Positions 12,958 to 40,253 of a stretch of DNA of 52,278 nucleotides are shown piece by piece. Made by a program: the position numbers and the translations under genes. The stretch spans positions 1 through 52,278 of the forward strand of contig CAZVAA010000001.1 of assembly GCA_964624125.1 (NCBI GenBank), given 5' to 3'. The notes beneath the pieces are model-generated. The model saw only the letters and a program-made list of their open reading frames with translations. It searched no databases and was not told the origin of the DNA. Source of the DNA: an uncultured Sphaerobacteraceae bacterium. Its GTDB lineage: Bacteria; Chloroflexota; Chloroflexia; Thermomicrobiales; UBA6265. How positions within the stretch are numbered: the first letter of the stretch is position 1; every line of letters begins with the position of its first letter.

Positions 12958-13058
12958 ACGGCCACAGTGTACGTACACAGCACGCGGCTGGCGTGCTTCG
13001 CTTTGCCCCGCAAGTGATCAACGGATCGTTTCCCGCAACGAGAGGAAGGGGACAACCT

Positions 13059-13829: not shown

Positions 13830-13837
13830 GCGGCTCA

Positions 13838-14767
13838 ATGGCACGACGACGGGGAACTCAACGAAATGCGACGACGGGGACGGCAGTGACCGTCCTCGTC
13901 GTGTTGCTCTCACTTGCTGTTGTGTGGCAGGTCGCCTCGCTGCTCGGTCCAGGGGACCCTGCCGGTCCGGTGGTTGAGGACACCTTCTACACAACCGCCG
14001 ACGTCAACCTCCGCGCCGGGCCTGGTGTTGACTACGAGGTCCTGTCGGTCGTACCGGTTCGGGATGAGGTCACCGTCACCGGAGACGCCCGGGATGGCTT
14101 TCTCCCGGTGCGGACGCAGGGGGTGGATGCCTGGATTGCCTCCGATTACCTGTCGCCGGATGGAGTCACGCTCGCATCGAATGTCGATGTGGCCATGCCG
14201 ACGGAAGCGCCGCTTCCCACCGACGTTCCGCCGACCCAGGCTCCGCTGCCAACCGAGATTCCGCCGACGGAAGTGCCAGTTGTGACCGGGGAGCCGGTGG
14301 CGGATACGCTTGCGGCGGAGACCACCACCGTTGGGGAGGGCGCGCCGGCGGCCCGATCGCTCGATGTCACGACGCCCGAAGGCGAGCGGTGGGCCGAAGT
14401 TGACCGATCCACCGGAACCGTGACGCTCCATCAGGGCAACACGATCGTCGCATCCTTCCCCGCGCTGATCGGCAAGGATCCGTCCGCGGACGGGTATTAC
14501 GCGACCGCGGTGGGAACGTACTACGTCTTCTCAAAGGAGCGTGCGCTGACCGAGACGCCGTTCGCCCCGGGGGTGTATCTCACCGATTGGGTTGGCTTCG
14601 ATCCGGAGCGCAGCAACGGCTTCCATTCACCGACTCGTGACGAGCATGGAAATATCGTGCAGACCGGCGGCACCGCCACCCTCGGCTGTGTTCGGCTTGG
14701 CGAGGCTGACGCCCGCACCATGTTCGACTTCGCCTTTATCGGCATGCGAGTCGAGGTGCACGACTGA
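13838..14767 (+). CDS. L,D-transpeptidase (YkuD domain) with an SH3b-like domain and a Pro/Thr-rich linker
   Basis: Paralog of the preceding gene. SH3b-like ADVNLRAGPGVDYEVLSVVPVRDEVTV, linker PTEAPLPTDVPPTQAPLPTEIPPTEVP, and YkuD core GFHSPT...GTATLGCVRLGEADARTMFDF. Confidence 0.85.
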   Translation: MARRRGTQRNATTGTAVTVLVVLLSLAVVWQVASLLGPGDPAGPVVEDTFYTTADVNLRAGPGVDYEVLSVVPVRDEVTVTGDARDGFLPVRTQGVDAWIASDYLSPDGVTLASNVDVAMPTEAPLPTDVPPTQAPLPTEIPPTEVPVVTGEPVADTLAAETTTVGEGAPAARSLDVTTPEGERWAEVDRSTGTVTLHQGNTIVASFPALIGKDPSADGYYATAVGTYYVFSKERALTETPFAPGVYLTDWVGFDPERSNGFHSPTRDEHGNIVQTGGTATLGCVRLGEADARTMFDFAFIGMRVEVHD

Positions 14768-20730: not shown

Positions 20731-20759
20731 TCCGCAGCAGCGCATCTCTTCTCCCGTAT

Positions 20760-20798
20760 CCCCGCCGGAATGTGTTCCGGCGGGGATTCCCATATTTT
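20760..20798 (+). terminator. Intrinsic terminator after DUF2207 paralog 1
   Basis: CCCCGCCGGA atgtgt TCCGGCGGGG followed by ATTCCCATATTTT. Confidence 0.5.
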
Positions 20799-20886
20799 GG
20801 CTGCGGTTATGGGAACTTTTCCGGCTGCGTTCCGGTTATATATGGTGAAACACAACCCTGCATGGTGAAGATGCCCGGAGACTCGT

Positions 20887-23040: not shown

Positions 23041-23233
23041 GGTCGCAGCTCACACCAGGCACAGCGGAGGGGCCGCGTTGCGGGGCAACCCGTTTGGCTG
23101 CCGGAGACCGTTGCCTCAACCCTCCGGGCGCCTGCATCGCAGTTGGTCCCGATCGCCATCCGTCTGGACTCGTTCCCGTACTATGGTGGTGCTGGGAATC
23201 AAGATCAAACGCACCTAGCCAGGAGAATCCGTC

Positions 23234-25087
23234 GTGAAGACGCGGTTGACCGGGATCCTGTTTGTACTTCTTGCGCTCGTACTCAGCGGATCGCCGGCGG
23301 CTGCCGAAGGGGTTACCTGGCGCATCTACGATGTCGTCGTGGATATTCGCGACGACGGCTCGATTCACGTCACCGAGACGGTTGAGATTGATTTCAACGG
23401 TTCGTTCTCGGAGGGACACCGCTCGATTCCCATGGATCGAATCGAGTCCATCGACAATGTCCAGGTTGCCGTCGGTGATGGTGCAAATGCCGCAACGCCG
23501 TCCGAGCAGATGTCGCGAGACGATTATTCCGGCAATCCCGGCACCTATACGGTCTACAACGAGGATGGCCGCACCGTCATCGATTATGGGTTCGCACCGG
23601 TTAATGGATTGGAAACCCGTGCCGTCGTCATCGAGTACGACGCGTTGGGCGTGATTCGTGACTATCCGGAGAACGACCCGCCCCGGCAGGAGATTCGCTG
23701 GACGGCCATCTCCGATGAGGTGACCGCCGTCGGGCCGGTCCGGAGCGCCAGCGCGACAATCAATTTCCCCGAAAGCGTCGAGGGGAGCGAGGCCACCCGG
23801 TTCGATCCACAAGAGACGTCCGCCCACCCAACCGGAGTGACGTGGGAGAGAACGGGCATGGGAGAGGGTGACCAGCTTCAGGTGCTGGCCTCGTTCCCGA
23901 CCATGACCGATGCCACCGCGCCAGCGTGGCAAGCAGACGCGGACAAGTACGAAGGGCGACAGAACCTGGTCCCCGGGATGTCGATGATCGTCGGGTTGGT
24001 GACCGTGGTTGGGGCCGTGTTGATGGGGCTCTTTATGTGGCGGGAGGGTGTCCGTGAGCCCGCTACGGGTGCGATCATCGATATCCTGCCGGAGCCTCCC
24101 GGGGACCTGCCTGCTGGCCATGTCGGCGCCCTTATCGATGAGTCGTTCAGTTCCAATGATTTGCTCGCCATGATGATCGACCTCGAGCGACGGGGCACGA
24201 TCGAGATCACCGAGGACGCGTCCAGGAAGGAATCGGATCCTTCACGGTATAAGCTGCGACTCCTGGAACGCCCGGGTGATGCCCCGGCATGGCAGCGGCC
24301 GATGCTGGAAGGCCTCTTTGGTGACGGCGCTCCCGTTGGCGCAACCACCACGTTCGAGCGGCTGAAAAAGCTGGCGGCTTCTCACCGGGGCAAGATTGGC
24401 AGTGCGGTAGAGAAAGATCTTTACGAGCGCGGCTACTACGAGGAACCGCCATCGGAGAGCCGGAAGCGCTGGGGCCTTCGCATCGTCGGCGCCGCTTTCC
24501 TGGTCGCGCTCGTCGTCGGAGCGATCGCCCTGTGGTCGCGGTCGTTTGGCGGCTGGTTGATTGCCGTGGCCGTGGTGATCGGTGTTTGCGCGATCCTGCT
24601 CGGCATCCTGGTGACACAGGCGGCGCGAAAGTCGCAAGCCGGGGCGGAGGAAGCCGCCAAATGGAAGGCGTTCCAACGCTACCTGAAGCAGATGCAGAAG
24701 GAAATGGAGCCGGACCAGCGTCTCCAGTTGATGGATACGTACCTGCCCTGGACCATCGCGCTGGGGTTCGGGAAATCCGAGTGGAAGGAGTGGGAGCGGG
24801 ACGACCGCGACTACCGCTGGGGCACGCACCAGTATCGGCCGTGGGATTCGAGGTACCGCCATCACCATTCCGGGATGGAGAGTCGCTCGGGTGGCGGTGG
24901 CTCGTTCGATGTGCAGTCCATGAGTAACCGGGCCATGGGCGGCGTGGGCACGGCGAACCTCTCGATGATGGCGATGCTCAACGCCGCATCGGACACGATC
25001 AGCGCCGGGTCGGGTTCATCTTCCGGGTCAGGGAGCGGCTCCGCCTCGTCCGGCAGCAGCGGCGGCGGTGGCCACAGCTTCAGCTAG
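23234..25087 (+). CDS. DUF2207-type membrane protein, paralog 3 (617 aa)
   Basis: GTG start with AGGAGA upstream and signal peptide MKTRLTGILFVLLALVLSGSPAAAEG. Motifs VTWRIYDVVVDIRDDGSIHVTETVEIDFNGSF, GVIRDYPENDPPRQEIRWTAISDEVT, LPEPPGDLPAGHVGALIDE and RKSQAGAEEAAKWKAFQRYL. The tail ends GGGGHSFS. Confidence 0.8.
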   Translation: MKTRLTGILFVLLALVLSGSPAAAEGVTWRIYDVVVDIRDDGSIHVTETVEIDFNGSFSEGHRSIPMDRIESIDNVQVAVGDGANAATPSEQMSRDDYSGNPGTYTVYNEDGRTVIDYGFAPVNGLETRAVVIEYDALGVIRDYPENDPPRQEIRWTAISDEVTAVGPVRSASATINFPESVEGSEATRFDPQETSAHPTGVTWERTGMGEGDQLQVLASFPTMTDATAPAWQADADKYEGRQNLVPGMSMIVGLVTVVGAVLMGLFMWREGVREPATGAIIDILPEPPGDLPAGHVGALIDESFSSNDLLAMMIDLERRGTIEITEDASRKESDPSRYKLRLLERPGDAPAWQRPMLEGLFGDGAPVGATTTFERLKKLAASHRGKIGSAVEKDLYERGYYEEPPSESRKRWGLRIVGAAFLVALVVGAIALWSRSFGGWLIAVAVVIGVCAILLGILVTQAARKSQAGAEEAAKWKAFQRYLKQMQKEMEPDQRLQLMDTYLPWTIALGFGKSEWKEWERDDRDYRWGTHQYRPWDSRYRHHHSGMESRSGGGGSFDVQSMSNRAMGGVGTANLSMMAMLNAASDTISAGSGSSSGSGSGSASSGSSGGGGHSFS

Positions 25088-25133
25088 CATCGCCGTCTGG
25101 AAGCCGTTGGACGGTCATCACGCTAGACTGTGG

Positions 25134-25162
25134 AACGGGGCGGACGAAGGCCGCCCCGTTCA
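25134..25162 (+). terminator. Hairpin after paralog 3 (weak terminator candidate)
   Basis: GAACGGGGCGG acgaagg CCGCCCCGTTC, an 11-bp stem. The downstream ACCGTATTGAT is only weakly T-rich. Confidence 0.35.
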
Positions 25163-25213
25163 CCGTATTGATCCAGAATCACTTCCCGGACGCCTGCGAA
25201 ATGACAACGCCAC

Positions 25214-26341
25214 ATGACCACAACTGACGCCATCATCCGGCTCGCGCTGATCGGTGGCATGGTCCTCCTGCTCGTCGGAGGCCTGCTGCTGATCCTCGGT
25301 ATCTGGTACTTGCGTGGGCGCGATCCGCAGACCGGCCTGGTTGCCGATATCATCAGCGAGCCCCCGGACGATCTCCCACCCGGCGCCGTTGGCACGCTCC
25401 TCGACGAGCATGCCGACCATGAGGATGTCGTCGCGACGCTTCTCGGGCTCGGTCGAAATGGCGCTGTCACCATCGAGCAGGTACCGAGCGCGAACCGAAG
25501 GGTGCGGGACTACCTCATCACGCTCCTGCATCCTGACCGCATCACCGACCGCATCGAGCGTGACTTGCTTGTCGTGCTCTTTGGCACGTCGCCGCAGGCG
25601 ATGCAGGAGGTCCGCCTCAGCGATGTACGGGGCCGCTTCGCGCGCCATGAACCGCAGATCCGCGACGACCTCTATAACGAGCTTGTCACGCGCGGTTACT
25701 TCCCGGAAAACCCGCATACCCAGCGGCAGCGTTGGCGTCGCATCGCGTGGATCGGCTTCGGCCTCTCGTTCGTGATCGGCATCATCCTCGCGATCACCGT
25801 CGATCCCGTCGCCCTCGCAACGATGGTCGCGGCCATGGTTGTCTGGGGCGTCATGGTCCGCGTCAGCCGGCACATACCGCGCAAGACGGAGAAAGGCGCG
25901 GAAGCCGCCGCGAAGTGGCGGGCCTTCAAGCGCTACCTGCAATCCATCGAAAAGCAGCGCTCCCTGTCCGAGGCCTCGGACATCTTCGATCGCTACTTCT
26001 CCTATGCCGTCGCGTTCGGTATCGAGCGTGAGTGGATCCGCGCCTTCGCCAAGGCCGGCGCGGCAAAACCCGCCTGGTTCGGCGGGGTCGATGTGGGGGA
26101 TGTGGTCATCGCTGGCGACCTGGGCAACCTGGGCGACATCGGCGATATCGCGGGCGCGGGTAGGGTGATCGGGGAGATTGGTGGCTCCATCGGAGATGTC
26201 TCGCTCCCGGATGTGTCGATGCCCGACGTACAGGGGCTTTCAGATATGCTTGGCGGGACCTTGCAGGGCGCAAGCGACGGATTGAGCGGGTTACTGGATG
26301 CAGCAGGATCAGTCTTCGATGCCATTGACTTTGACCTCTGA
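25214..26341 (+). CDS. DUF2207-type paralog 4 (375 aa), with only the membrane/cytoplasmic half and no ectodomain
   Basis: Starts directly at the helix equivalent to the post-ectodomain TM (LLLILGIWYLRGRDPQTGLVADIISEPPDDLPPGAVGTLLDEHADHEDVVATLLGL). Keeps RKTEKGAEAAAKWRAFKRYL. The acidic GD-rich tail ends AGSVFDAIDFDL. An in-frame TGA at 25202-25204 excludes a longer N-terminus. Confidence 0.7.
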   Translation: MTTTDAIIRLALIGGMVLLLVGGLLLILGIWYLRGRDPQTGLVADIISEPPDDLPPGAVGTLLDEHADHEDVVATLLGLGRNGAVTIEQVPSANRRVRDYLITLLHPDRITDRIERDLLVVLFGTSPQAMQEVRLSDVRGRFARHEPQIRDDLYNELVTRGYFPENPHTQRQRWRRIAWIGFGLSFVIGIILAITVDPVALATMVAAMVVWGVMVRVSRHIPRKTEKGAEAAAKWRAFKRYLQSIEKQRSLSEASDIFDRYFSYAVAFGIEREWIRAFAKAGAAKPAWFGGVDVGDVVIAGDLGNLGDIGDIAGAGRVIGEIGGSIGDVSLPDVSMPDVQGLSDMLGGTLQGASDGLSGLLDAAGSVFDAIDFDL

Positions 26342-29456: not shown

Positions 29457-30650
29457 TCAGTGCCGCTGCCCAATCCACGGCTCGGCGATGCGGTATGCCT
29501 CGTTCCAGACTGTCCGGATCGCCACGTCATGCTCGCGGGCGATCTCCACGCAATCGTCGTATTCCGGCATGGCGTCGATCACCCGGCCGTTCCATATGCG
29601 CAGTTTCACCCGCACATCTCCCCACCGGGTCGTCGCGTTCTGGATGTGGCGAGCGGTTTTCGTCCGCTCGATCGGTATCGCCCGTACGCCGAGCGTCGAC
29701 GTGTTCTCGATGAGCACCGACTCCAGTTCCTGTCGCCGGGAAACAGGCGCGAGCACGCTCATCTGGACCGCCGGCCGGCCCTTCTTCATCGTGATGGGGG
29801 TCGTCCATACGTCCAGTGCGCCGCGCGCGAAGAGCCGTTCCGTCGCCAGCTCGATGAACTGCGGGTTCATGTCGTCGATATTCGTCTCAAGCAGGATCTC
29901 GCCGTCAGCCGGGCCATCGTCGTCGACCTCACCGATCCACACCCGTAGCGCGTTCGGCCATGGCAGCTCCTTCTGGCCGAAGCCGTACCCGATCGCGGTG
30001 GGGGAGAAGGACGGTTGCCCGAACGTCGCCATCGTCGTCAGGATCGCCGCGCCGGTTGGCGTGAGCAATTCTGCCGGCGTCTCCGCGATCAGCGGCGTCG
30101 GCTTGGCGACCGGGGCGTTTGCCTGCGCCACCAGCTCCAGCGTCGCCGGCGCGGGCACCGGGATCGTCCCGTGGGCGCTGTTGGCGAAGCCGTGGCCCAT
30201 CTGCAACGGACCACACATCACCGCGTCGATCCCGAGTAGCGAGAATCCGATGCAGGCGCCACAGATATCCACGATCGCATCGACCCCGCCGACCTCATGG
30301 AAGTGGACATGGTCGATCGTTGTCTCGTGAATCTTCGCCTCCGCGATCGCCAGTCGCTCGAAGATTTGAAGCGCGGCTGACCTGACGTCCGCATCAAGAC
30401 TGGACTCCTCGATCAGCACCCGGATATCGCCCCACGTTCGCGAATGGACATCCTCCGTCACATCGACGTGAACCCGTGTGCCGTGAATGCCATGCTGCCC
30501 GGCTCGATCCTTGCGAAGGGTGTACCCTCCGATCTCGATCTTGCTCAGCTCCGTCGAAAGATCGGCGACGGAAAGGCCGGCATCGACCAGCGCGCCAAGG
30601 ATCATGTCGCCACTGGCGCCGGAATACGGATCGAAATACGCGATTTTCAT
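29457..30650 (-). CDS. larC: Nickel-pincer cofactor biosynthesis protein LarC (DUF111 nickel insertion protein)
   Basis: Track ORF 29457-30674, trimmed to MKIAYFDPYSGASGDMILGALVDAGL, the LarC N-terminal signature. Also HFHEVGGVDAIVDI. Confidence 0.85.
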   Translation of the reverse strand: MKIAYFDPYSGASGDMILGALVDAGLSVADLSTELSKIEIGGYTLRKDRAGQHGIHGTRVHVDVTEDVHSRTWGDIRVLIEESSLDADVRSAALQIFERLAIAEAKIHETTIDHVHFHEVGGVDAIVDICGACIGFSLLGIDAVMCGPLQMGHGFANSAHGTIPVPAPATLELVAQANAPVAKPTPLIAETPAELLTPTGAAILTTMATFGQPSFSPTAIGYGFGQKELPWPNALRVWIGEVDDDGPADGEILLETNIDDMNPQFIELATERLFARGALDVWTTPITMKKGRPAVQMSVLAPVSRRQELESVLIENTSTLGVRAIPIERTKTARHIQNATTRWGDVRVKLRIWNGRVIDAMPEYDDCVEIAREHDVAIRTVWNEAYRIAEPWIGQRH

Positions 30651-30819
30651 GAACGGAAGCCTCCGGTCTGGCACTCGTATCGTAGGACGGCAAATCTACC
30701 GGTGATCACCCTCACCGGATGTCTATACCTTCGGATACACTTGACCCACAGCATACCCGTGGATCGCCTGTTTCCCCAGACGTCTCGCAAGCGGTCACGA
30801 GGTATGGAGGAGTTTCGGT

Positions 30820-31191
30820 ATGAGTTTCAACGCATATTCACCTCCGGGTTGGTGGGATCGCACGCGCATGCTGCGATATGCCTTCGCCGTCGGTCTCGTC
30901 CTCGGCATCGGGATGGGGTGGTTCTTCCACGGCATCATCTCGATGATGTTCCGCTTCGGGCTGGTCTTCCTGTTGCTGCTGCCCCTGGCGCTGCTCGCCT
31001 TCATGTGGTGGCGGTCGAGCCGGGAACGGAACCGCATGCAGACCTCGATGACCGTTGTCCGCTGGGGCAACACGCCATTCAGCCAGTACCCGGGCAACGA
31101 TATGGCGGCCGGTCCGCTCGGGAACGTCCGCTACGACAACGACGATGTCGTCAATGCCGACGATGTTCCATACCAGGAGCCTCGTCGCTGA
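30820..31191 (+). CDS. Hypothetical small membrane protein (123 aa)
   Basis: GGAGGAG about 8 nt upstream of the ATG. Two hydrophobic helices (AFAVGLVLGIGMGWFFHGIISMMFRFGLVFLLLLPLALLAFMWW) followed by a soluble tail. Confidence 0.5.
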   Translation: MSFNAYSPPGWWDRTRMLRYAFAVGLVLGIGMGWFFHGIISMMFRFGLVFLLLLPLALLAFMWWRSSRERNRMQTSMTVVRWGNTPFSQYPGNDMAAGPLGNVRYDNDDVVNADDVPYQEPRR

Positions 31192-31217
31192 TTCTTTTTC
31201 TCGAACTACTGGTTGTG

Positions 31218-31958
31218 ATGTTCGCCGTCGGCGTCCTCATCGGCTTTATCGGGGCCGGAGGCGCCGGCGTTACTGTGTCCCTCCTGACCGTTGCGTTTGG
31301 CCTCTCCATTCACACGGCCGTCGGCACCGCCCTCGCCGCGATGCTCTTCACCACGATCTCCGGCTCCATCTCGCATTTCCGTGAGGGCAACATCTCGATC
31401 GCCCCGGGGGTGGTGATCGGTGTCGCCGGCATGACGGGCGCTGCGATCGGCGCCGACCTCAGCCAGAACATCCCCGAACACATCCTCCAGCCCGCCGCCG
31501 GCTTCGCTCTCTGGTTCCTCGCGTTCCTGGTCTGGCTGCGCCTGCGCCTGCGGAGTCGCCTTCGACATATCAGTGAAGACGAGCCACGGCCACCATTGAC
31601 CCGTGCCCAGTACGCGGGCGGCACCGGCGTCGGCGTCATGGGCGGGATGGCCTCGGCCTTCTTCGGGGTAGGCATGGCGCCCTTTGTCCAGCTCGGGCTG
31701 CTGACCGTCATGCGCCTGCCGCTGATCAAGTCTGTCGGCACCACCATGCTGGCGCTCTCCTTCATCAGCCTCAGCGGAAGCCTCGCGCTGGCGCGGCACG
31801 GCGATGTTTCCTTCATCCACCTCGCCGGAGTGGTCGCTGGCATGACCTCCGGCTCCTACGTCGGCGCCAAGTTCACGCGCCGAGCCCCGATCGGCGTCCT
31901 CCGCGTGGCCGTCGTCGCGACGCCGTTCATTGGCGGAATCCCGCTGATCTTTTTCTGA
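31218..31958 (+). CDS. TauE/SafE (DUF81) family anion exporter
   Basis: Only the last ~247 aa of the 504-aa track ORF look real: MFAVGVLIGFIGAGGAGVTVSLLTV...TTISGSISHFREGNI.... The start is uncertain (GTG 31215, ATG 31218, or a non-canonical start a few codons upstream). Confidence 0.8.
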   Translation: MFAVGVLIGFIGAGGAGVTVSLLTVAFGLSIHTAVGTALAAMLFTTISGSISHFREGNISIAPGVVIGVAGMTGAAIGADLSQNIPEHILQPAAGFALWFLAFLVWLRLRLRSRLRHISEDEPRPPLTRAQYAGGTGVGVMGGMASAFFGVGMAPFVQLGLLTVMRLPLIKSVGTTMLALSFISLSGSLALARHGDVSFIHLAGVVAGMTSGSYVGAKFTRRAPIGVLRVAVVATPFIGGIPLIFF

Positions 31959-32499: not shown

Positions 32500-33444
32500 A
32501 TGAAACAAAACCGGGTAGCCTCGCTCCTTGTCCTCCTCATCACCATCATCGTCGTTGCAACGTGGGACAACACCCTGAGCCGGTCATTCGTCGACGAGCC
32601 GGAAGAGGCTCCCACACAAGTCGCGGAAGCTCCCTCCGGCACCTCCGCCGAGACGCCTCCCAATTCCGTTCTCGACCCGGTCGTCACCTCGACGGCGGTT
32701 CCCCAGCCGACAGATCCTCCTACCCCGGTGCCGACGATCGAGCCCACTCCGGAACCCACAGCCGAGCCTGAGGAAACCCCACGACCTCCCGCACCCGAAA
32801 ACGCATCAAGCCAGTCTTATATGATCCAGCGCGGAGAATCCGATCGCGTTGAGGTCGCCCTCACGTTCGATGCTGGTGAGGGTGTCGGTTACACGGAGGA
32901 AATCCTCGACCTCCTCGCCGAGTACGATATCCGGGCCAGTTTCGGCCTGACTGGTGAATGGGTGCGGGAGCATCCCGAGCTCACCCGGCGCATCATCGAA
33001 GAGGGGCACCATGTCATCAACCACAGCGAGACCCACGCATCGTGGACGGGGCTCTCCACGTCGGTTGATCCCCTGACCGAAGCCGAGCGCATCTCCGAGC
33101 TTGAAACGCCCGAGGCTGCCGTGCTCGATGTGGCTGGCTACGAGACGAAGCCGTATTACCGCCCGCCCTATGGCGATATGGATCCCGAGGGTCTGACTCT
33201 CCTCAAGGATCAGGGCTACGACTACACCGCCATGTGGAGCTGCGACACCCTTGCATGGATGGGAGACGCCCCGGATGTCATCGCCGAGCGCTGTCACCCT
33301 GATTCCGAAGGCGGCGGCCCTGGCGCCATCATCCTCATGCATGTCGCCCAGGAAAACGACTGGCTGGCGCTCGAGCAGATCATCACCGACTATGCCGCTG
33401 CCGGCTACGACTTCGTCACCATCGAGCAGATGATCCAGCCGTAG
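32500..33444 (+). CDS. Polysaccharide deacetylase (NodB homology domain) with an N-terminal anchor and Pro-rich linker
   Basis: VALTFDAGEG...ASFGLTGEWV...GHHVINHSETH...RPPYGD, which are NodB motifs. N-terminal TM LLVLLITIIVVA and linker PQPTDPPTPVPTIEPTPEPTAEPEETPRPP. Confidence 0.85.
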   Translation: MKQNRVASLLVLLITIIVVATWDNTLSRSFVDEPEEAPTQVAEAPSGTSAETPPNSVLDPVVTSTAVPQPTDPPTPVPTIEPTPEPTAEPEETPRPPAPENASSQSYMIQRGESDRVEVALTFDAGEGVGYTEEILDLLAEYDIRASFGLTGEWVREHPELTRRIIEEGHHVINHSETHASWTGLSTSVDPLTEAERISELETPEAAVLDVAGYETKPYYRPPYGDMDPEGLTLLKDQGYDYTAMWSCDTLAWMGDAPDVIAERCHPDSEGGGPGAIILMHVAQENDWLALEQIITDYAAAGYDFVTIEQMIQP

Positions 33445-33493: not shown

Positions 33494-34315
33494 CTACTGG
33501 TTCGCGTGGCTCTTGAGGAATGGCACCGCAGCATCAAGGAACGCCTGCTTCGTCTCTCCCCGGTGCAGCGTATGTCCCGCGCCGGGAATTCGCACCGTGC
33601 GGGCGTTTGCCAGTCGTGTCTCCAGCGCCGCGATGTCGTCCGGGTGCACCATGCCACCCGCCTCGAGGTCACCATGCACCAGCAATACCGGTGAGATGAT
33701 GCCCTCGATCTCCCGGATTCGGTCTACGCCGTGGTTGGCCATGGATTCCGCCATCGATTCCTCGAATACCGCCCGCTTCGTGTTCACCATCGACCACGCC
33801 CGCGACTCCGCGATCTCCCGGGGCAGGTCGGGCTGCTCGCTCAGGTTGTACGCAACGAGTTCTTCGTAGGGCATCGCATTCATCTTCAGCCAGCCCTCGA
33901 AGGCAGGGCGGAAGTCCTCCCCGCTCCGCAGGGGAGAGTCCTCGATCACCATCGCCGCCGCCTGGTCCGGATGTTTCGCCGCCCACCAGAGCGTGATGAT
34001 CCCGCCCAGCGAGTGCCCCATGATGAGCGGGCGCTCCCAATCCAGGGCCGTGAACAGGCGCTCCAGATCCCCGATGTAGTCCTCATAGCCGTAGCCGGAC
34101 TCCGGCTTGCCAGATCGCCCGTGGCCGCGCAAGTCAAGCGCGATCGGGGAGAAATCCTTCGCGAGGTCGTCGATCACCGGGTCCCAGCCGCTTCCACTGC
34201 TGCTGATTCCATGGATAAGGAGCAGGCGCGGTCCATTGCCGTCGTAGCTCGTGATATTGAGGGATATCTGGTCGAGTTCGAGCAATTCGGAGCGGGATGG
34301 CGTCGAGACGGGCAT
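33494..34315 (-). CDS. Alpha/beta-fold hydrolase
   Basis: Track ORF trimmed to ATG 34315 with GGAGG upstream. LLLIHGISSSGSGW (oxyanion region) and IMGHSLGG (nucleophile elbow). Confidence 0.8.
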   Translation of the reverse strand: MPVSTPSRSELLELDQISLNITSYDGNGPRLLLIHGISSSGSGWDPVIDDLAKDFSPIALDLRGHGRSGKPESGYGYEDYIGDLERLFTALDWERPLIMGHSLGGIITLWWAAKHPDQAAAMVIEDSPLRSGEDFRPAFEGWLKMNAMPYEELVAYNLSEQPDLPREIAESRAWSMVNTKRAVFEESMAESMANHGVDRIREIEGIISPVLLVHGDLEAGGMVHPDDIAALETRLANARTVRIPGAGHTLHRGETKQAFLDAAVPFLKSHANQ

Positions 34316-34607
34316 GGATAAGGACCTCCGGTAGCGCAAGGGGTAGGGAATTTCCGGACACGACATGCGGGGTAAGCCCTCCGCGATGCCATGAACCCTG
34401 ACAGTTTATGAAGTTCGTCCGGCTACGCGCTACAATGCCTTTGTTGTTATGGCGCGGAGTATGCGTGAGTATCGGCATACTTGTGCTTCGGCACGCGTTC
34501 AGCATTGCATGCGCGAAGGTTCGCTTCGAGGATCTCCACCACCGGAAAGCGGCCAATTGCAATCTCATATTGCTGGTGGACCAGGGTAACGGGAGGCAAC
34601 AGCCGGT

Positions 34608-37343
34608 ATGAACCGCTTGAACCGACGACGATTTATGGCGCTTTCCTCCGCGGGTGTCGCCAGCGCTGTGCTGGTTGCCTGCGGGAATGAACCCGTCAGC
34701 GATGAGGACCTGAGCCCGACCCAGATCCCCGACGTCGCGGGGGCACCACCAACGCTTGCTCCGATCACCAGCACTCCCGAATCTGGTGGCGGTGAGCAGG
34801 GTTCCGGGGACGAGCAGTCCGGTGGCGGTGGTGGTTCCGGCACGGTCGAGATCGAGGCCTTCGACATCGGCTACACCCCGGGTGAGCTTGAGTTGGCGCC
34901 TGGCGACACGCTGGTGATGAACAACACCGGCGTCTTGCAGCACGACCTTGTGATCGAGGACTTCGGCGACGAGGAAGTCATCCCGCTGATCAATGGCGGC
35001 GAGAGCGCCGAGTGGACCGTTCCCGATGACGTCGAAATCGGTTCGTCTGTGACCTTCTATTGCTCGGTCGCGGGTCACCGTGAAGCCGGCATGGAAGGAA
35101 CCATCACCTTCGTCGAGGCCGGTGCCGCCGGAGCCAGCGAAGAGGAAGGCGAGGAAGAAGAGGCAGCCGCCGGTGGAGGTGGCAGCACAGAGATCGAAGC
35201 GTTCGACATCGGGTACGAGCCGAACGAGCTTGAACTCGCCCCCGGCGATACGCTGACCATGACCAATACCGGCGTGCTCGAGCATGACCTGATCATCGAG
35301 GACATGGACGATCTCGAAGCCATTCCGTTGATCCCGGGTGGAGAGTCCGGGGAGTGGACGGTCCCGGATGATGTCGAGGTCGGCTCGAGCGTCACCTTCT
35401 ACTGCTCGGTCGCGGGCCACCGTGAAGCCGGCATGGAAGGCACGATCACCTTCGTCGAAGGTGGCGGCGGTGGTGCGGCGGAAGAGGAAGCCTCTCCAGA
35501 AGAGGAGGCCGAGGGCGACGAGGCCGCCGCAGCCGGCGCGACCGACGAGGAGTCGGGCGGCGGTGGAGGCGGTGAGATGGCCGTCGAACTCGAGGGCTTC
35601 GAGATGGGCTTTGAACCGTCCGAGTTCACGATCGCCCCGGGCGGCACGATCACCATGACCAACACCGGTGTCCTGGAACACGACTTCGCGGTCGATGACT
35701 GGGGCGGGGTCCTGATCGGCCCGATGGCTGGCGGTGAGTCCGGCGAGTACACCGTGCCGGAGGATGCGGCCCACGGCGAGACCTTTGAGTTCTATTGCAG
35801 CATCCCGGGTCACAAGGAGTCGGGCATGGTTGGCACGCTCACCGTCGGCGAGGCCGGCGGTGGGGGGGGTGGCGCCGCGGCGGATGAAGGCGACGCGGAA
35901 GCCACTCCTGAAGAAGAGGACGAGGCTGCCGCGGGTGGCGCTTCCGAGGGAGGCGAAGCCGGAGAGACCGCGATCGAGCTTGAGGCCTTTGAGATGGCAT
36001 TCGAGCCCGCCGAGTTCACCATTGCTCCGGGTGGCACGATCACCATGACCAACACCGGTGTGCTGGAGCATGACTTCGCCATCGATGATTGGGGTGGCGT
36101 ACTGATCGGCCCGATCAACGCCGGCGAGACAGCCGAGTATACGGTGCCGGAGGACGCGGCCCCAGGCGAGAGCTTCGAGTTCTATTGCAGTATCCCGGGC
36201 CATAAGGAATCCGGCATGGTCGGAACCCTGACTGTTGGGGGCGGCGGCGACTCAGCCGCCGCCAGCACCGGACAGGAAGGCGAGGAAGAAGCCGCGACGC
36301 CCGATGAAGAGGCGGGCGCGGCTTCTTCGTCTGGTGGGGAAAGTGTCGCCGAGGTCTCCATCTCCGCATTCGAGTTCGGTTACGACCCCGCAGAGGTGGA
36401 GGTGTCCCCGGGCACGAAAGTCGTCATGGTGAACGACGGTGTGCTTGAGCACGACATCTACGTCGACGCCTGGGGTGAGATTGCCCCGCTGGTTGGCGGT
36501 GGCAGTGAGGCGGAGGGCGTGATCCCGGACGATGCGCAGGCCGGCGAGAGCTTCGAGTTCTACTGCACCGTCGCTGGCCACCGGGAGTCCGGCATGGTCG
36601 GCACATTCGTCGTCGTTGGCGGTGAAGGTGGCGGCGATGCCACTGCCGAAGCTGATGGCGGGGAAGCCTCAGAGGAAGAGATCTCGGGGAACAAGATCGA
36701 GATCGCGGCGAACGAGTGGACTTATAGCCCCTCCGAGGTCGAGGTCGCGCCCGGCGATACCATTGTGCTCCGCAACGACGGAGCGATGGCCCACGATATG
36801 TCGTCGGAGGAGTGGGGCGAGCCGTTCATTCCGGATGTTGCCCACGGCGAAACCGGCTCCTTCGTGGTGCCGGAAGACGCGGAGATCGGCTCCACCATCG
36901 AGATCTACAGCGTTAACCAGGGAGCCCGGAACCTGGGCATGACCGGCACGATCACCATCGTTGAGGAGAGCGAGGCGGTCACCGCGCCCTCCGCGCCGGC
37001 GGCCACGCCGCAGGTCTCGCCGGAAGAAGCCGCGACTCCGGGTGCCGCAACGCCAGAAGCCTCCGGTGGCGGCTCCACCATCGAGGTCGAGGCGGGCGAT
37101 ATCTATTTCGAGCCGGCCGAGTTCGAGGCGTCACCTGGCGACACCATCGTTTTGCACAACGTCGGGGTACTCGAGCACGACATGGCCTCCGAAGCGTTGG
37201 GTGTCACGATGATCGAGATGCTCTCCCCGGGCGAAATGGGCGAATTCGTCATCCCGGACGACGCATCGGGCGAGATCGACATTTACTGCACCGTGGCTGG
37301 CCACAAGGAAGCCGGTATGGTCGGAACGATCACCATCGTCTAG
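34608..37343 (+). CDS. Tat-exported lipoprotein of seven tandem plastocyanin/auracyanin-like cupredoxin domains
   Basis: MNRLNRRRFMALSSAGVASAVLVACG has a twin-Arg motif plus a lipobox Cys. Seven ~92-aa modules are separated by Gly/Glu-rich linkers. Six carry H (VLEHD) ... C-x4-H-x4-M (FYCSxxGH[RK]ExGM), the type-1 Cu ligand pattern. Confidence 0.85.
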   Translation: MNRLNRRRFMALSSAGVASAVLVACGNEPVSDEDLSPTQIPDVAGAPPTLAPITSTPESGGGEQGSGDEQSGGGGGSGTVEIEAFDIGYTPGELELAPGDTLVMNNTGVLQHDLVIEDFGDEEVIPLINGGESAEWTVPDDVEIGSSVTFYCSVAGHREAGMEGTITFVEAGAAGASEEEGEEEEAAAGGGGSTEIEAFDIGYEPNELELAPGDTLTMTNTGVLEHDLIIEDMDDLEAIPLIPGGESGEWTVPDDVEVGSSVTFYCSVAGHREAGMEGTITFVEGGGGGAAEEEASPEEEAEGDEAAAAGATDEESGGGGGGEMAVELEGFEMGFEPSEFTIAPGGTITMTNTGVLEHDFAVDDWGGVLIGPMAGGESGEYTVPEDAAHGETFEFYCSIPGHKESGMVGTLTVGEAGGGGGGAAADEGDAEATPEEEDEAAAGGASEGGEAGETAIELEAFEMAFEPAEFTIAPGGTITMTNTGVLEHDFAIDDWGGVLIGPINAGETAEYTVPEDAAPGESFEFYCSIPGHKESGMVGTLTVGGGGDSAAASTGQEGEEEAATPDEEAGAASSSGGESVAEVSISAFEFGYDPAEVEVSPGTKVVMVNDGVLEHDIYVDAWGEIAPLVGGGSEAEGVIPDDAQAGESFEFYCTVAGHRESGMVGTFVVVGGEGGGDATAEADGGEASEEEISGNKIEIAANEWTYSPSEVEVAPGDTIVLRNDGAMAHDMSSEEWGEPFIPDVAHGETGSFVVPEDAEIGSTIEIYSVNQGARNLGMTGTITIVEESEAVTAPSAPAATPQVSPEEAATPGAATPEASGGGSTIEVEAGDIYFEPAEFEASPGDTIVLHNVGVLEHDMASEALGVTMIEMLSPGEMGEFVIPDDASGEIDIYCTVAGHKEAGMVGTITIV
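34842..37340 (+). repeat. Seven tandem intragenic coding repeats (cupredoxin modules)
   Basis: Modules at 34842-35117, 35184-35459, 35574-35849, 35964-36239, 36345-36617, 36690-36965 and 37074-37340. Modules 1/2 and 3/4 form the closest pairs at both DNA and protein level. Confidence 0.8.
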
Positions 37344-37360
37344 CCCGTTTCAGGCGGATT

Positions 37361-37401
37361 CAGGGGTCGGTGGAATCACTCCACCGGCCCCTGTTCTCGT
37401 T
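37361..37401 (+). terminator. Intrinsic terminator after the cupredoxin gene
   Basis: CAGGGGTCGGTGGA atcac TCCACCGGCCCCTG, a 14-bp stem with one G-U pair, followed by TTCTCGTT. Confidence 0.7.
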
Positions 37402-37473
37402 AACCATCTGGCGAAGCGTTTGGAGGAAGGGGTGCGTTTCGCGACGTGGTGCCTACGTCGTGCGCGCTTCGGC

Positions 37474-37502
37474 TTGACCGCTACCGGTTATACGGGTATT
37501 TA
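37474..37502 (+). promoter_or_regulatory. Sigma70-like promoter with an adjacent hairpin
   Basis: TTGACC (37474-37479), a 17-nt spacer, then TATTTA (37497-37502). Immediately followed by the hairpin GTGCTGTCG...CGACAGCAC (37504-37533), about 360 nt upstream of GTG 37861. Confidence 0.45.
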
Positions 37503-37860
37503 AGTGCTGTCGAGTGGACATTCGCGACAGCACCGAGATGATTCCGCGCCATAGCCTGGACACGGCAGGGCAACCAGCCCGACGGGCGGTGAATGAGGTC
37601 AATCAGAAGGCTGCTTTGGGGAGCAGGCCAGGGAAGCATCGGGCAGATGCTGCCTTGCGTTGCCTGGTCACTCTCCAGTGCGGCCTCTTCATGTGTAATC
37701 GGGCATCGTGATGCGACAGGGCCAACCGGCGCGGCAGGGGTATTCGGGACGCCGCGAACCACACTCGCGGTTTCAGTGCGGAAACAGATTCAGGGACATG
37801 ACGACCGATACGAGAGGCGTCACGGTGCCTGTTTGGGGTTATATCGAGGGGTAGGGCAGG

Positions 37861-38625
37861 GTGAGCAAGCAGTTGGTCGAGTTCCTCAAATCGGGAAGGA
37901 CCTGGATTTACGGTGTCATCGTGCCGTCCATCGTAGGACTCATCATCGCCGTCACCACAGACGGCATGGGGTTCCAGATGTTCCTGGTATGGACACTCTT
38001 CTTCCTCCTCCTGGTCGCCGTCTACGAAGGATTCCTGAGGCAGCGGAGTATCCAGGACTCCGAGACCTACTTCGCTGGTTCCGCGAATGGACTCTACAAG
38101 CTCCTGCCGCATAGCCTGGCGGATATGATCCGGAACGCTGGCCCGGACGGCGTTGCGATCATGGGCGGGGCGCTTGGTGGGTTCGCGATCAACCGGGAAA
38201 ACACGGAGGCGCTGGGGAGTCTCTCCCGCCAGGGCGTGCCCGTCCAGATCCTGATGCTCGATCCCGAAGGACCGGGAGTGGAGCGGCTGGCCGACCAGCG
38301 ACGCCAGGTTGGGTCGAGCGTCACCGGGCCGGAACTCAGGGCCGAGATCCGGACGAGTCTCAAGCACCTGAGGGACCAGCTGGGGCCGTCCAATATGTAC
38401 CAGAGCTGCCGGCTCTACTCGCATACGCCGAGGAATGCCATCTACCGTATCGGCGACTCCTACGTGGTGACGGTCTACCGCTTCGGTGGCGGCGGTTCTT
38501 CGCCGTCCCTGTTCCTGAAGCGAAACGAGGCCAACGACGCGTTCTGCAACGGCCTGGACCGGAGCTTCCGGGACACGTGGAACAGCGAGACCAGCAGGCC
38601 GTTCCGCGACGAGGATATCCTCTAG
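37861..38625 (+). CDS. Membrane-anchored protein with a C-terminal domain resembling DUF5919 (degenerate PLD-like fold)
   Basis: GTG start and two N-terminal TM helices. The pattern VQILMLDPEGPGVERLADQRR...CRLYSHTPRNAIYRIGDSYVVTVYRFGGGGSSPSLFLKR recalls the DUF5919 module that normally follows XRE HTH domains. This is my recollection, not a search result. Confidence 0.55.
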   Translation: MSKQLVEFLKSGRTWIYGVIVPSIVGLIIAVTTDGMGFQMFLVWTLFFLLLVAVYEGFLRQRSIQDSETYFAGSANGLYKLLPHSLADMIRNAGPDGVAIMGGALGGFAINRENTEALGSLSRQGVPVQILMLDPEGPGVERLADQRRQVGSSVTGPELRAEIRTSLKHLRDQLGPSNMYQSCRLYSHTPRNAIYRIGDSYVVTVYRFGGGGSSPSLFLKRNEANDAFCNGLDRSFRDTWNSETSRPFRDEDIL

Positions 38626-39335
38626 GGATTCGTCGCCGTCACGAACAGCATCGTTCCGATGGCCGGCACCGGAAGCCGCGATTCTGCGGCTTCCATCCGC
38701 ACGCGCAAGGGATGCAGTTTGCGCTCCGCCTCCCGGTCGCCCAGCACGAAGTTGCAGGAGAGAAAGCCGGCGAGTTGCGGGATCTCGCTGAGGCCGACTC
38801 CGGATCTTTCCATTGCGACCAGGCGCAGCCCGGTGACATCGAGCATCTGGCGCACGGCCTTCTCCGAGTAGTGCCGGTTCCAGCCGGTCGGAAGCGAGTC
38901 GTCCGGCGCATCGCCCCGTTTCGTCACATCGGTCACGTACCGATAGATGTTTCGTGCATCGAGCCATGCCAAAGGCCCACTCGCCGGTAGCATGAATCGC
39001 AGCGTTCCACCAGGCGCAAGGACGCGTCCCAGCTCGCGGAGCCAAGCCTCCTCATCGATGGCCCGTGAGAGCGCAGTGCCGGCGTCGACGCGCGTAAAGG
39101 CGGCATCGGGCACGTCCAGCGCCGGCGTCGGTTCATCGGTCCGGTAGACCGCGATCTCCTCGTCACCGGCGAGGAAACCCACGTCCGGGCAACGGAGACG
39201 AGTCCGGTCGTCCAGCGATGCACTCAGGCGCAGGTCGAGCCTGAGGGTCGATTCGAGGTTGGATGAAGGGGCAGCAGTCACGCGGGTCCTTTCGCGCCGG
39301 GGTGCATGGCCGGGCTGTGTCGTCGGCGGCCTCAT
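38622..39335 (-). CDS. Class I SAM-methyltransferase-like protein with a degenerate or missing motif I
   Basis: WLRELGRVLAPGGTLRFMLP is the Methyltransf_11-type motif. Where VLDLGCGTG is expected the sequence reads TLRLDLRLSAS. The start is uncertain (ATG 39335 or GTG 39281). Confidence 0.55.
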   Translation of the reverse strand: MRPPTTQPGHAPRRERTRVTAAPSSNLESTLRLDLRLSASLDDRTRLRCPDVGFLAGDEEIAVYRTDEPTPALDVPDAAFTRVDAGTALSRAIDEEAWLRELGRVLAPGGTLRFMLPASGPLAWLDARNIYRYVTDVTKRGDAPDDSLPTGWNRHYSEKAVRQMLDVTGLRLVAMERSGVGLSEIPQLAGFLSCNFVLGDREAERKLHPLRVRMEAAESRLPVPAIGTMLFVTATNP

Positions 39336-39375
39336 TGCGTATCCTCTCTATACAGTGACCAGCACGTCCGGCGCA

Positions 39376-40107
39376 ATGGAAAGGTCTGACCTGGACATGG
39401 AACTCATCTCCCTGCACCCGTTCGACCAGGAAGTCGCCAACCGGTACATCGCCGCTCTCACCGGCGATGCCCCGCCCGATCCGGCGTGGCAGGCGTGGTG
39501 GAAGCCCTCGCTGATCGACGACCTCGCCAGGATCGCCGAAGGCCGGGAAGACGCGTCCAACCGCATCACCCTCGGGCTCGCCTGGGCGCTCGCGGGAGAG
39601 CATCCCACATTCGTGCGGCAGGGTTTCGGGTTGACGACGTGGGAGGCGCGCATCGATCGCGGCGTCGGGATGCTGATGCGTCCGCCGGCACGCATTTTTG
39701 TGGATGCCGGTGTGCCGCGCCCCGCGATGCAATCGATACCGATTCGCCTTGAGGTGCAGGCCGGGATGATGGGCGGCGCCTATGTTCCGCCGCGCCTCAT
39801 CAACGACCTGGGCGAGTTGCTCGACAGCAAGCTCGAGCGCATGGCGAAGCGAATGAACGACGCTGACTACGATCCCTTCGCCATGATCGCCCTGCTTCAC
39901 CAGGCCGTGTCCTACGCGCGGGAGCGCGGGCTCGGGCTGTATGAGGCGCAGGATGCCGTCGGCGGCCCTGTCCCCGGCATGCATGTGGTCGAGGCGCCCG
40001 AAAAGAAGCGGATGGACACCGATCTGCGCAAGCGAATCGAGACGGCCATCGCCGAGGAAAAGAAGGGGAGCCTCTTCTCCCGCTTCTTTGGCAAGAAACC
40101 CAAGTAA
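39376..40107 (+). CDS. Hypothetical protein (243 aa) with a Lys-rich C-terminus
   Basis: Track ORF 39259-40107, trimmed to MERSDLDMELISLHPFDQ.... Composition is protein-like and I recognise no family. Confidence 0.5.
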   Translation: MERSDLDMELISLHPFDQEVANRYIAALTGDAPPDPAWQAWWKPSLIDDLARIAEGREDASNRITLGLAWALAGEHPTFVRQGFGLTTWEARIDRGVGMLMRPPARIFVDAGVPRPAMQSIPIRLEVQAGMMGGAYVPPRLINDLGELLDSKLERMAKRMNDADYDPFAMIALLHQAVSYARERGLGLYEAQDAVGGPVPGMHVVEAPEKKRMDTDLRKRIETAIAEEKKGSLFSRFFGKKPK

Positions 40108-40188
40108 CGCCTCGCGCACCGCTGGTGAGCCGGATCCGTTCGTCGAATCCGGGAGCGCATTCACCTTCCGCGGAACCCCGTACTTACG

Positions 40189-40218
40189 TTGACAGTACCC
40201 ATGTGAAGTTGTTAGTAT
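40189..40218 (+). promoter_or_regulatory. Sigma70-like promoter of the hrcA-grpE-dnaK operon
   Basis: TTGACA (40189-40194), an 18-nt spacer, then TAGTAT (40213-40218). CIRCE starts 9 nt downstream. Confidence 0.55.
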
Positions 40219-40226
40219 CCTTGGTG

Positions 40227-40253
40227 TTAGCACTCATCAATCGAGAGTGCTAA
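40227..40253 (+). promoter_or_regulatory. CIRCE operator (HrcA binding site)
   Basis: TTAGCACTC-atcaatcga-GAGTGCTAA is a perfect match to the CIRCE consensus TTAGCACTC-N9-GAGTGCTAA. It lies 21 nt upstream of the hrcA GTG. Confidence 0.9.

Follow-up and report, generated by a model that had tools for sequence, protein, structure and literature searches.

A 52,278-nt stretch of DNA from an uncultured Sphaerobacteraceae bacterium (Chloroflexota, Thermomicrobiales; positions 1 to 52,278 of contig CAZVAA010000001.1, assembly GCA_964624125.1; hereafter the window) encodes a putative lipoprotein of 911 amino acids (aa) in which seven cupredoxin modules follow one another on acidic, disordered linkers, six of them with a predicted type-1 (T1) copper site and one without. 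On balance, and with moderate confidence, we favour the view that this protein is a lipid-tethered 'poly-auracyanin' exported by the twin-arginine translocation (Tat) pathway, the modules of which would act as independently swinging one-electron carriers in respiration. The textbook blue-copper carriers, among them plastocyanin, azurin and auracyanin, are single-domain shuttles, and the textbook multi-domain cupredoxin proteins are enzymes, i.e. multicopper oxidases (MCOs) and the nitrite reductase NirK. A conserved family of chains with T1 sites only would form a third group beside these, that of multivalent tethered copper carriers, which is met here both as stand-alone lipoproteins and as fusions to the cytochrome c subunit of bc complexes.

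The gene on the plus strand at 34608..37343 is a complete open reading frame (ORF) with an ATG start and 911 codons followed by a stop. The seven tandem modules that a first-pass annotation had seen in it are recovered by the Pfam family Copper-bind (PF00127) as seven stretches (E 9e-46; 154.8 bits against a cut-off of 21.2), and Cupredoxin_1 matches as well, while five further Pfam names, SpoIIE, Ig_3, I-set, fn3_5 and FAS1_DH, were discarded as spurious with no qualifying stretch each. The modules measure 89-93 aa (aa 78-170, 192-284, 324-415, 454-545, 581-671, 695-786 and 823-911). Six of the seven carry the pattern GVL[EQ]HD ... YC[ST][VI][AP]GH[RK]E[AS]GM, that is His, Cys, His and Met, just as the first reading had it; module 6 reads GAMAHD ... 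YSVNQGARNLGM instead, where Ser stands for Cys and Ala for the second His. Pfam, a ligand-by-ligand alignment, AlphaFold and Foldseek agree that this is the ligand set of plastocyanin and auracyanin. The seven-module profile aligns best to cyanobacterial plastocyanin (E 1.3e-9), with the module histidine on that of the plastocyanin PPHN motif and FYCSvaGHreaGMvG on FYCE--PHRGAGMVG, so that the four ligands are in register; in the alignment with the Anabaena protein, His, Cys, His and Met land on the known ligands. The next-best profile match is the tethered N-terminal cupredoxin of the Hyphomicrobium nitrite reductase 2dv6.

Structure prediction gives the same picture. Module 4, modelled separately with AlphaFold, forms a nine-strand beta-sandwich with a predicted local distance difference test (pLDDT) score of 94.7, and a Foldseek search with it returned 219 matches in the Protein Data Bank (PDB) at E<=1e-3, headed by plastocyanin 2gim (E 1e-7, TMq 0.77) and including the Bacillus anthracis Cupredoxin_1 protein 4hci (TM 0.80-0.85), the Roseiflexus and Chloroflexus auracyanins, and azurin. 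In a full-length model built on a 24-sequence family alignment, all seven domains, module 6 included, exceed a pLDDT of 90, whereas the score is below 50 for the signal and tether (aa 1-76) and for every linker; the predicted template-modelling score (pTM) is 0.26 and the domains do not pack against one another. By sequence and predicted fold, the modules are thus T1 cupredoxins of the PF00127 family with predicted copper sites in six of them, and the chain, as modelled, is a string of beads.

The protein starts with MNRLNRRRFMALSSAGVASAVLVAC followed by Gly, and Cys25 is the sole cysteine outside the copper loops. Its signal, which reads NRRRFMA ... LVAC at Cys25, has the motif of a Tat-exported lipoprotein, in keeping with the twin-arginine signal and lipobox noted at first pass; R6, R7, F9, L22, A24 and C25 are invariant in the 24 family members aligned, and the model TIGR01409 scores 14.4 bits on the N-terminus, slightly under its cut-off of 16.7. 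From the RRRF and lipobox motif, Tat export and lipidation at Cys25 are predicted. Shortly after the lipobox cysteine, embedded in an otherwise disordered and fast-evolving tether, lies the motif PTQIPDVxGAPPTLAP (aa 37-52, 34716-34763). It is invariant or nearly so in the 24 family members, occurs once in the window and is absent from the syntenic orthologue P0205 (P numbers denote relatives of the array and L numbers their loci); it may serve for docking, sorting or modification.

The linkers were described at first pass as acidic and rich in Gly, Glu and Ala, which their composition bears out (26% Ala, 26% Gly and 23% Glu over lengths of 21-39 aa, with EEEGEEEEAAAGGGG among them). Their residues with a pLDDT below 50 are aa 173-189, 287-320, 418-448, 548-579, 673-692 and 789-821. 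The disordered parts sum to 244 residues with a contour length of ~88 nm, and each linker is expected to span ~3-4 nm (root mean square, rms). Net charge is -5 to -13 for each linker and -14 to -21 for each module; the mature chain holds 190 Asp and Glu against 14 Lys and Arg, a net charge of about -180. The proteome of the window is mildly acidic (isoelectric point, pI, mostly 4.4-6.5; cytoplasmic median near 5; secreted proteins 4.1-4.4), and the array is its extreme. Other predicted secreted proteins of the window are markedly acidic too, namely two YkuD L,D-transpeptidases (pI ~4.4; 12993-14767) and a polysaccharide deacetylase (pI 4.1; 32500-33444), a possible sign of a saline habitat or of an exoproteome that is acidic in general.

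Judged from sequence comparison, the array is a real gene under strong purifying selection. A twin on contig L086, independently assembled from another sample, encodes 908 aa with 98% aa and 94.7% nt identity, and the dN/dS ratio between the two genes is 0.049. All three indels that separate them lie in linkers, the substitution rate of the linkers is about twice that of the modules, and module 6 shows no differences at all. Within the window protein, the closest repeat pairs, modules 1 and 2 (M1/M2) and modules 3 and 4 (M3/M4), share 84-85% aa and 76-79% nt identity with dS > 1 and dN/dS ratios of 0.14 and 0.06, respectively; the remaining module pairs share 38-52% aa identity, and overall repeat identity at the DNA level is 53-79%. 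An assembly or repeat artefact is ruled out by this DNA-level divergence, by dS values above 1 even between the closest repeats and by the existence of the independently assembled, near-identical gene. The GC content at third codon positions (GC3) is 0.77, and codon-position GC is typical of genes in the window.

A search of 5.8 billion proteins, along the line suggested at first pass of looking for the same architecture in related genomes, uncovered a conserved Thermomicrobiales family. Its ~35 relatives have 3-7 modules, nearly all start RRRF ... L[VT]AC[GS], and the highest count, seven, is that of the window protein and its twin. Six relatives share the locus LarC-TauE-FeS-deacetylase-alpha/beta-hydrolase(-) / gene / FBP aldolase ... 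HrcA-GrpE-DnaK (FBP, fructose-bisphosphate), where the gene encodes four modules in P0009, five in P0025 and P0205, six in P0017 and P0007, and seven in P0001; one syntenic locus with differing module counts identifies these proteins as orthologues with a changed module number. The adjacency of alpha/beta-hydrolase and FBP aldolase looks like plain synteny and is probably not functional. In the module tree, the window protein reads A A' B B' C D* E against A B C D* E in the five-module relative P0002; on these sequences, the first two module types were duplicated in tandem within this lineage to give the seven modules, and other lineages have expanded B-type modules independently.

The strict ligand pattern is matched by 168 of the 184 modules in the family, and three non-matches can be read as pattern or truncation artefacts, which brings those with a full ligand set to 171. 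The 13 modules that lack the ligands are all the penultimate module of a single subfamily. This copper-less module is also the best conserved one, with 84-87% identity to orthologues compared with 69-77% for its neighbours. Its recurrence in 13 relatives together with its top conservation marks it, by sequence, as an old, selected feature rather than decay.

The one pointer from the array to a respiratory complex comes from a different protein. In the most distant matches, P0034 and P0035, three related cupredoxin modules are preceded by an N-terminal transmembrane (TM) helix and a cytochrome c domain with CxxCH, and the P0035 gene directly follows the genes for a split cytochrome b (N and C parts) and a Rieske protein. 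The P0035 family counts 797 proteins at E<=1e-20, many of them labelled Thermomicrobiales, and the gene of the Thermomicrobiales member P0202 likewise comes fourth, after cyt b(N), cyt b(C) and Rieske genes, in an operon. The cytochrome c-cupredoxin fusion looks like an undescribed type of bc-complex c-subunit. P0205, found with a bc-subunit query, has a lipobox and five modules and lies at the alpha/beta-hydrolase / gene / FBP-aldolase locus; being built of the module type of the bc subunits and yet a syntenic orthologue of the window gene, it indicates that both kinds of array share module types. Modules of the same type fused to cytochrome c in bc operons lend indirect support to an electron-transfer role of the window array. 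At loci L089 (5728-9611) and L085 (3779-7823), from Thermomicrobiales/Chloroflexota metagenome-assembled genomes, the fourth operon gene encodes a TM-anchored CxxCH cytochrome c with 3-4 tandem T1 modules.

Several known protein classes were considered and set aside. The array is not an MCO or NirK, because the HxH motif is missing; it is missing from the 38 relatives as well, in line with the absence of type-2 and type-3 (T2/T3) copper sites noted at first pass. The protein also lacks a Cu-oxidase Pfam family and packed domain interfaces (pTM 0.26). Nor is it an orthologue of plastocyanin or, probably, of auracyanin. It does exceed the cut-off of the NCBIfam plastocyanin equivalog TIGR02656 (135.3 vs 87.85 bits), but only as the sum of six stretches of ~22 bits per module, and the loop insertions of plastocyanin are absent from the modules; with the amicyanin, azurin and rusticyanin models the scores are far under the cut-offs. 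Acidity and the Tat lipobox initially suggested a haloarchaeal halocyanin, which is excluded by the bacterial neighbours (MurJ, HrcA-GrpE-DnaK) and by a DnaK 90% identical to that of Thermomicrobiales (Chloroflexota) metagenome-assembled genomes.

Plastocyanin (2gim, 1fa4) is nevertheless the best match in sequence and structure, with four aligned ligands, and it shuttles single electrons between a bc-type complex and a terminal acceptor. Unlike the array, it is a soluble single domain; the modules lack ~9-12 of its loop residues, have a C-x4-H instead of a C-x2-H loop and His-Asp instead of His-Asn after the first ligand, and belong to a non-photosynthetic host. The auracyanins A and B of Chloroflexus and Roseiflexus (1qhq, 2aan, 6kol) come from the same phylum and share the T1 fold (Foldseek), the His/Cys/His/Met ligands, and attachment to the membrane by an N-terminal anchor with a flexible tail behind it, auracyanin A being a lipoprotein. 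They differ in being single domains of ~125-140 aa, as opposed to seven minimal modules of ~90 aa, and in lacking the Tat signal, the extreme acidity and the conserved copper-less module. Their sequence similarity is weak (6kol/2aan, E 7e-4 to 1.5e-3 in a partial profile alignment), plastocyanin being closer. Auracyanins have been proposed as acceptors of the quinol oxidase alternative complex III (ACIII) and donors to downstream complexes, and auracyanin is described as the typical ACIII acceptor in a publication whose tables give Thermomicrobia as aerobic with a Complex III of 'ACIII or both' (PMC5826079). The genome paper on Thermomicrobium roseum suggested an auracyanin homologue as a possible carrier (PMC2615216).

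Tethering has its closest precedent in the three-domain nitrite reductases (Hyphomicrobium denitrificans 2dv6; 6tfd), in which a T1 cupredoxin is covalently linked to its redox partner. The copper loop is near-identical, YYCSIAGHRQAGMEG in 2dv6 and FYCSVAGHREAGMEG in the array, both spaced C-x4-H-x4-M, and the His-Asp motif is shared as well. However, these enzymes add one extra cupredoxin to a catalytic T1/T2 NirK core, and the array has no such core, T2 site or HxH. The cytochrome c-(cupredoxin)2-5 subunits (P0035, P0202, P0186, P0210) resemble the array in their related tandem T1 modules and Ala/Gly/Glu/Pro linkers and come from the same order, but they are anchored by a TM helix at the N-terminus, place a CxxCH cytochrome c domain before their 2-5 modules and are encoded in a bc operon, while the array is a stand-alone lipoprotein without haem. 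In function, the closest analogy would be with the dihaem and multihaem cytochromes of monoderms, such as the dihaem QcrC of actinobacterial bcc complexes, which likewise place several one-electron centres on one extracytoplasmic polypeptide and replace a freely diffusing carrier in cells without a closed periplasm. This likeness is one of function alone: their haems are rigidly packed within a few angstroms, whereas the centres of the array sit on separate domains joined by disordered linkers, with another cofactor and another fold.

How might such a chain work? We envisage six T1 copper modules and one copper-less module on flexible acidic linkers at the outer face of the cytoplasmic membrane, where each copper module would carry one electron at a time in the manner of plastocyanin and auracyanin. 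Electrons would be donated by a quinol oxidase of the bc or ACIII type and accepted by haem-copper oxidases or other copper enzymes. Tethered and unpacked, the modules would form a multivalent carrier cloud within a few nm of the membrane, in which self-exchange from module to module might occur occasionally but would not be required, and there would be no fixed wire. Mutual repulsion could keep the chain extended and prevent the modules from sticking to one another, the copper-less penultimate module might be a docking or spacer unit, and the number of modules would be tuned through tandem duplication and loss. Chloroflexota are generally regarded as single-membrane cells, from which free carriers would be lost.

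It is important to point out what weighs against this proposal. We infer the one-electron-carrier role from the modules, and copper binding, colour and redox potentials are predictions. The link to respiration is indirect in that it rests on module homology in a different protein, and the partners named for the array are putative, with none encoded nearby. The search for respiratory neighbours called for at first pass found none in the window, and no respiratory gene adjoins the array gene at any orthologous locus. Roles for the PTQIPDVxGAPPTLAP motif and the copper-less module are guesswork. Finally, the extreme acidity may in part stem from a generally acidic exoproteome rather than a dedicated mechanism, which tempers any special reading of the charge.

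The first-pass annotation had offered two models, a multi-centre relay akin to multihaem cytochromes and a high local concentration of tethered carriers, and it is the second that fits the disorder, the variable valency and the copper-less module better. A relay would work by sequential hopping from module to module, which would take charge tens of nm away from the membrane and across the cell wall, where the electron donor or acceptor would be remote or extracellular. Six T1 centres on one polypeptide anchored at one end would suit such a 'copper wire', as would a contour length of up to ~90-110 nm and linkers whose ~3-4 nm rms span lets neighbouring modules collide, and transfer from a tethered cupredoxin to a T1 site has its precedent in three-domain nitrite reductases, whose tethered domain is second only to plastocyanin as a sequence match. 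Yet the disordered linkers of 21-39 aa (pLDDT < 50) and the low pTM speak against any fixed inter-domain geometry, the copper-less module between M5 and M7 would break a strict chain, and a range of 4-7 modules among orthologues is unexpected for a device of defined length. In addition, the charge of -14 to -21 on every module disfavours module-module encounters, and Pfam finds no terminal catalytic or substrate-binding domain. A wire of the multihaem-cytochrome class, in which one folded unit keeps the redox centres at short and constant edge-to-edge distances, does not fit the disordered linkers, the low pTM and the copper-less module. With no fixed geometry predicted, variable valency, a copper-less interruption and electrostatic repulsion, the carrier cloud is favoured over a relay, which we regard as unlikely.

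Slightly less probable still is a role in copper buffering or handling, in which a chain with six coppers would act in tolerance, as a reservoir or as a chaperone for cuproenzymes, similar to CopI. Multiplied sites would be a simple gain in capacity, a variable module number fits a dosage logic, and Tat export would permit loading before export. The NCBIfam CopI models do collect summed partial matches (NF051440, 143.7 bits over nine stretches; NF047895, 61.6 bits), but these lie far under the cut-offs of 280 and 200 bits, respectively, and are limited to the shared C-terminal copper loop. By these scores and for want of a His/Met-rich region (13 of its 16 His are at ligand positions), the protein is not a CopI. 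Moreover, no cop, cus or csoR genes occur nearby, in the window or at the orthologous loci, a buried T1 site is a poor store of exchangeable copper, and same-type modules are wired into bc-complex operons. That the chain is a polyprotein precursor, cut in its linkers after export to free single-domain blue-copper carriers, is very improbable: long, exposed low-complexity linkers are protease-accessible and tandem identical carriers from one transcript economical, but no conserved cleavage motif is visible in linkers that vary freely in length and sequence, a cell that has no enclosed periplasm would lose the freed domains, and the single lipid anchor, conserved module order and fixed penultimate copper-less module argue for an intact chain.

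A broader scheme can be proposed tentatively, although we consider it rather doubtful at present. Thermomicrobiales, together with many single-membrane bacteria that have arrays, may run extracytoplasmic respiration on tethered blue-copper chains that replace soluble or dihaem cytochromes c. One chain would be built into the bc complex (cytochrome c with three to four cupredoxins), and a second, the lipid-anchored chain of 4-7 modules described here, would hand electrons to the oxidases, with its copper-less module and the PTQIPDVxGAPPTLAP motif as docking elements. If true, this would amount to an undescribed copper-based class of multivalent electron-transfer tether, with a bearing on how bacteria without a closed periplasm retain their carriers and on how Chloroflexota couple quinol oxidation to O2 reduction. 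The system is tractable, as the ~90-aa modules are predicted with high confidence and should be coloured, and the natural variants with 4-7 modules are a ready series for the effects of valency and linker length on electron-transfer kinetics.

Arrays of this kind extend beyond the family. The module profile has 7,892 matches at E<=1e-3 among 1.84 billion representative proteins, and T1-only arrays of 7-11 modules appear in unrelated lineages: P0121 (10 modules, 1154 aa, with Pro-rich linkers and a C-terminal TM anchor), P0098 (11 modules, 3670 aa, a giant Bacteroidota-like protein with PKD domains), P0112 (seven modules, 1166 aa, with a lipobox), P0100 (seven, 880 aa), P0137 (seven, 818 aa), P0157 (seven, 1064 aa) and P0113. 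From this survey, such arrays, of up to 10-11 modules, seem to be widespread among metagenomes. Examples are Actinobacteria-like proteins with Pro-rich linkers and a C-terminal TM anchor, a lipobox protein, and giant Bacteroidota-like proteins in which cupredoxin and PKD-like units are interleaved. P0121 and P0112 (loci L090, 7063-10527, and L091, 8001-11501) are stand-alone genes without respiratory neighbours; at L091, a neighbour of > 2383 aa has weak Cu-oxidase matches.

In the full-text literature searched, the coverage of which is incomplete so that absence is no proof, neither T1-only tandem arrays nor cupredoxin-fused bc complexes are described. 'Multidomain cupredoxin' denotes the SCOP class of MCO and NirK there, reviews treat cupredoxins as single-domain carriers or as parts of nitrite reductases, MCOs and cytochrome c oxidases, and databases name such arrays just 'plastocyanin' or 'cupredoxin domain-containing protein'. 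The component is classical; what appears to be undescribed is the tethered, multivalent design, along with its conservation, its copper-less module and the parallel fusion in bc complexes.

Table 1. Features of the cupredoxin-array gene and its surroundings, in window positions.
Feature	Position	Strand	Basis or remarks
Coding sequence, Tat-lipoprotein with seven tandem cupredoxin modules	34608..37343	+	ORF, Pfam, motif reading
Divergent alpha/beta-hydrolase, conserved neighbour marking the orthologous locus	33494..34366	-	Pfam; loci of P0009, P0017, P0001, P0025, P0007, P0205
Promoter-like stretch ATGAAGTT ... TACAAT, weak evidence	34407..34436	+	Shared only with L081 (closest four-module orthologue locus)
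Shine-Dalgarno sequence GGGAGG, 11 nt 5' of ATG	34591..34596	+	Direct reading; GGAGG kept in orthologue upstream regions
Tat signal peptide (RRRF) and lipobox LVAC, Cys25 predicted lipidation site	34608..34682	+	Invariant residues in family
Acidic disordered tether, 52 aa	34683..34838	+	pLDDT < 50
Module 1, type A, ligands H112/C152/H157/M162	34839..35117	+	pLDDT ~90-94
Module 2, type A', old duplicate of module 1, ligands H226/C266/H271/M276	35181..35459	+	84% aa, 76% nt identity to module 1
Module 3, type B, ligands H358/C397/H402/M407	35577..35852	+	
Module 4, type B', old duplicate of module 3, ligands H488/C527/H532/M537	35967..36242	+	Modelled separately
Module 5, type C, ligands H615/C653/H658/M663	36348..36620	+	
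Module 6, type D*, copper-less cupredoxin fold, Ser768 for Cys, Ala773 for His	36690..36965	+	pLDDT ~90-95
Module 7, type E, ligands H857/C894/H899/M904, C-terminus of protein	37074..37340	+	
Six Ala/Gly/Glu linkers: 35118-35180, 35460-35576, 35853-35966, 36243-36347, 36621-36689, 36966-37073	span 35118..37073	+	pLDDT < 50
Terminator-like hairpin, 14-bp stem, 10 GC pairs, T-rich tail; 18 nt past stop	37361..37403	+	

A gap of 241 nt separates the array gene from the divergent alpha/beta-hydrolase gene. The promoter-like stretch within it was not picked up by a consensus promoter scan and is not shared with the more distant orthologue loci; its use would give a 5' untranslated region of ~170 nt without an Rfam match. 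Searches of the upstream region for Rfam families and an inverted-repeat operator found none. With a hairpin and T-rich tail directly past its stop, the gene looks monocistronic, and no operon partners were found, since the other genes of the window and those at five orthologous loci are all of the housekeeping kind.

The genes of the window are bacterial and include those for MurJ, WecG, LarC, TauE, a protein of Fe-S assembly, a polysaccharide deacetylase, HrcA-GrpE-DnaK, four paralogues with DUF2207, acetyl-CoA synthetase and a Fur regulator together with an ABC-3 transporter; its 52 kb contain no gene for respiration, copper homeostasis or denitrification. At the orthologous loci L081, L083, L087 and L088, a class II fructose-bisphosphate aldolase gene lies 3' of the cupredoxin gene. 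It is missing from the window and from the twin contig L086, and the interval 37344-40250 has instead the ORFs 37861-38625 and 39259-40107, neither with a Pfam match. These ORFs in place of the aldolase point, by sequence, to a local rearrangement or insertion 3' of the cupredoxin gene in the window and its twin.

The four DUF2207 membrane-protein paralogues (696, 717, 617 and 375 aa) are consecutive (18640-26341) and lie upstream of WecG and MurJ; two of them are conserved at the P0017 locus too. In the ORF at 30444-31958 (504 aa), the TauE/SafE domain is confined to residues 255-499. Since the same region is called as two genes at orthologous loci, one of ~120 aa with no Pfam match and a TauE gene of ~245 aa, the true TauE start is probably near 31200.

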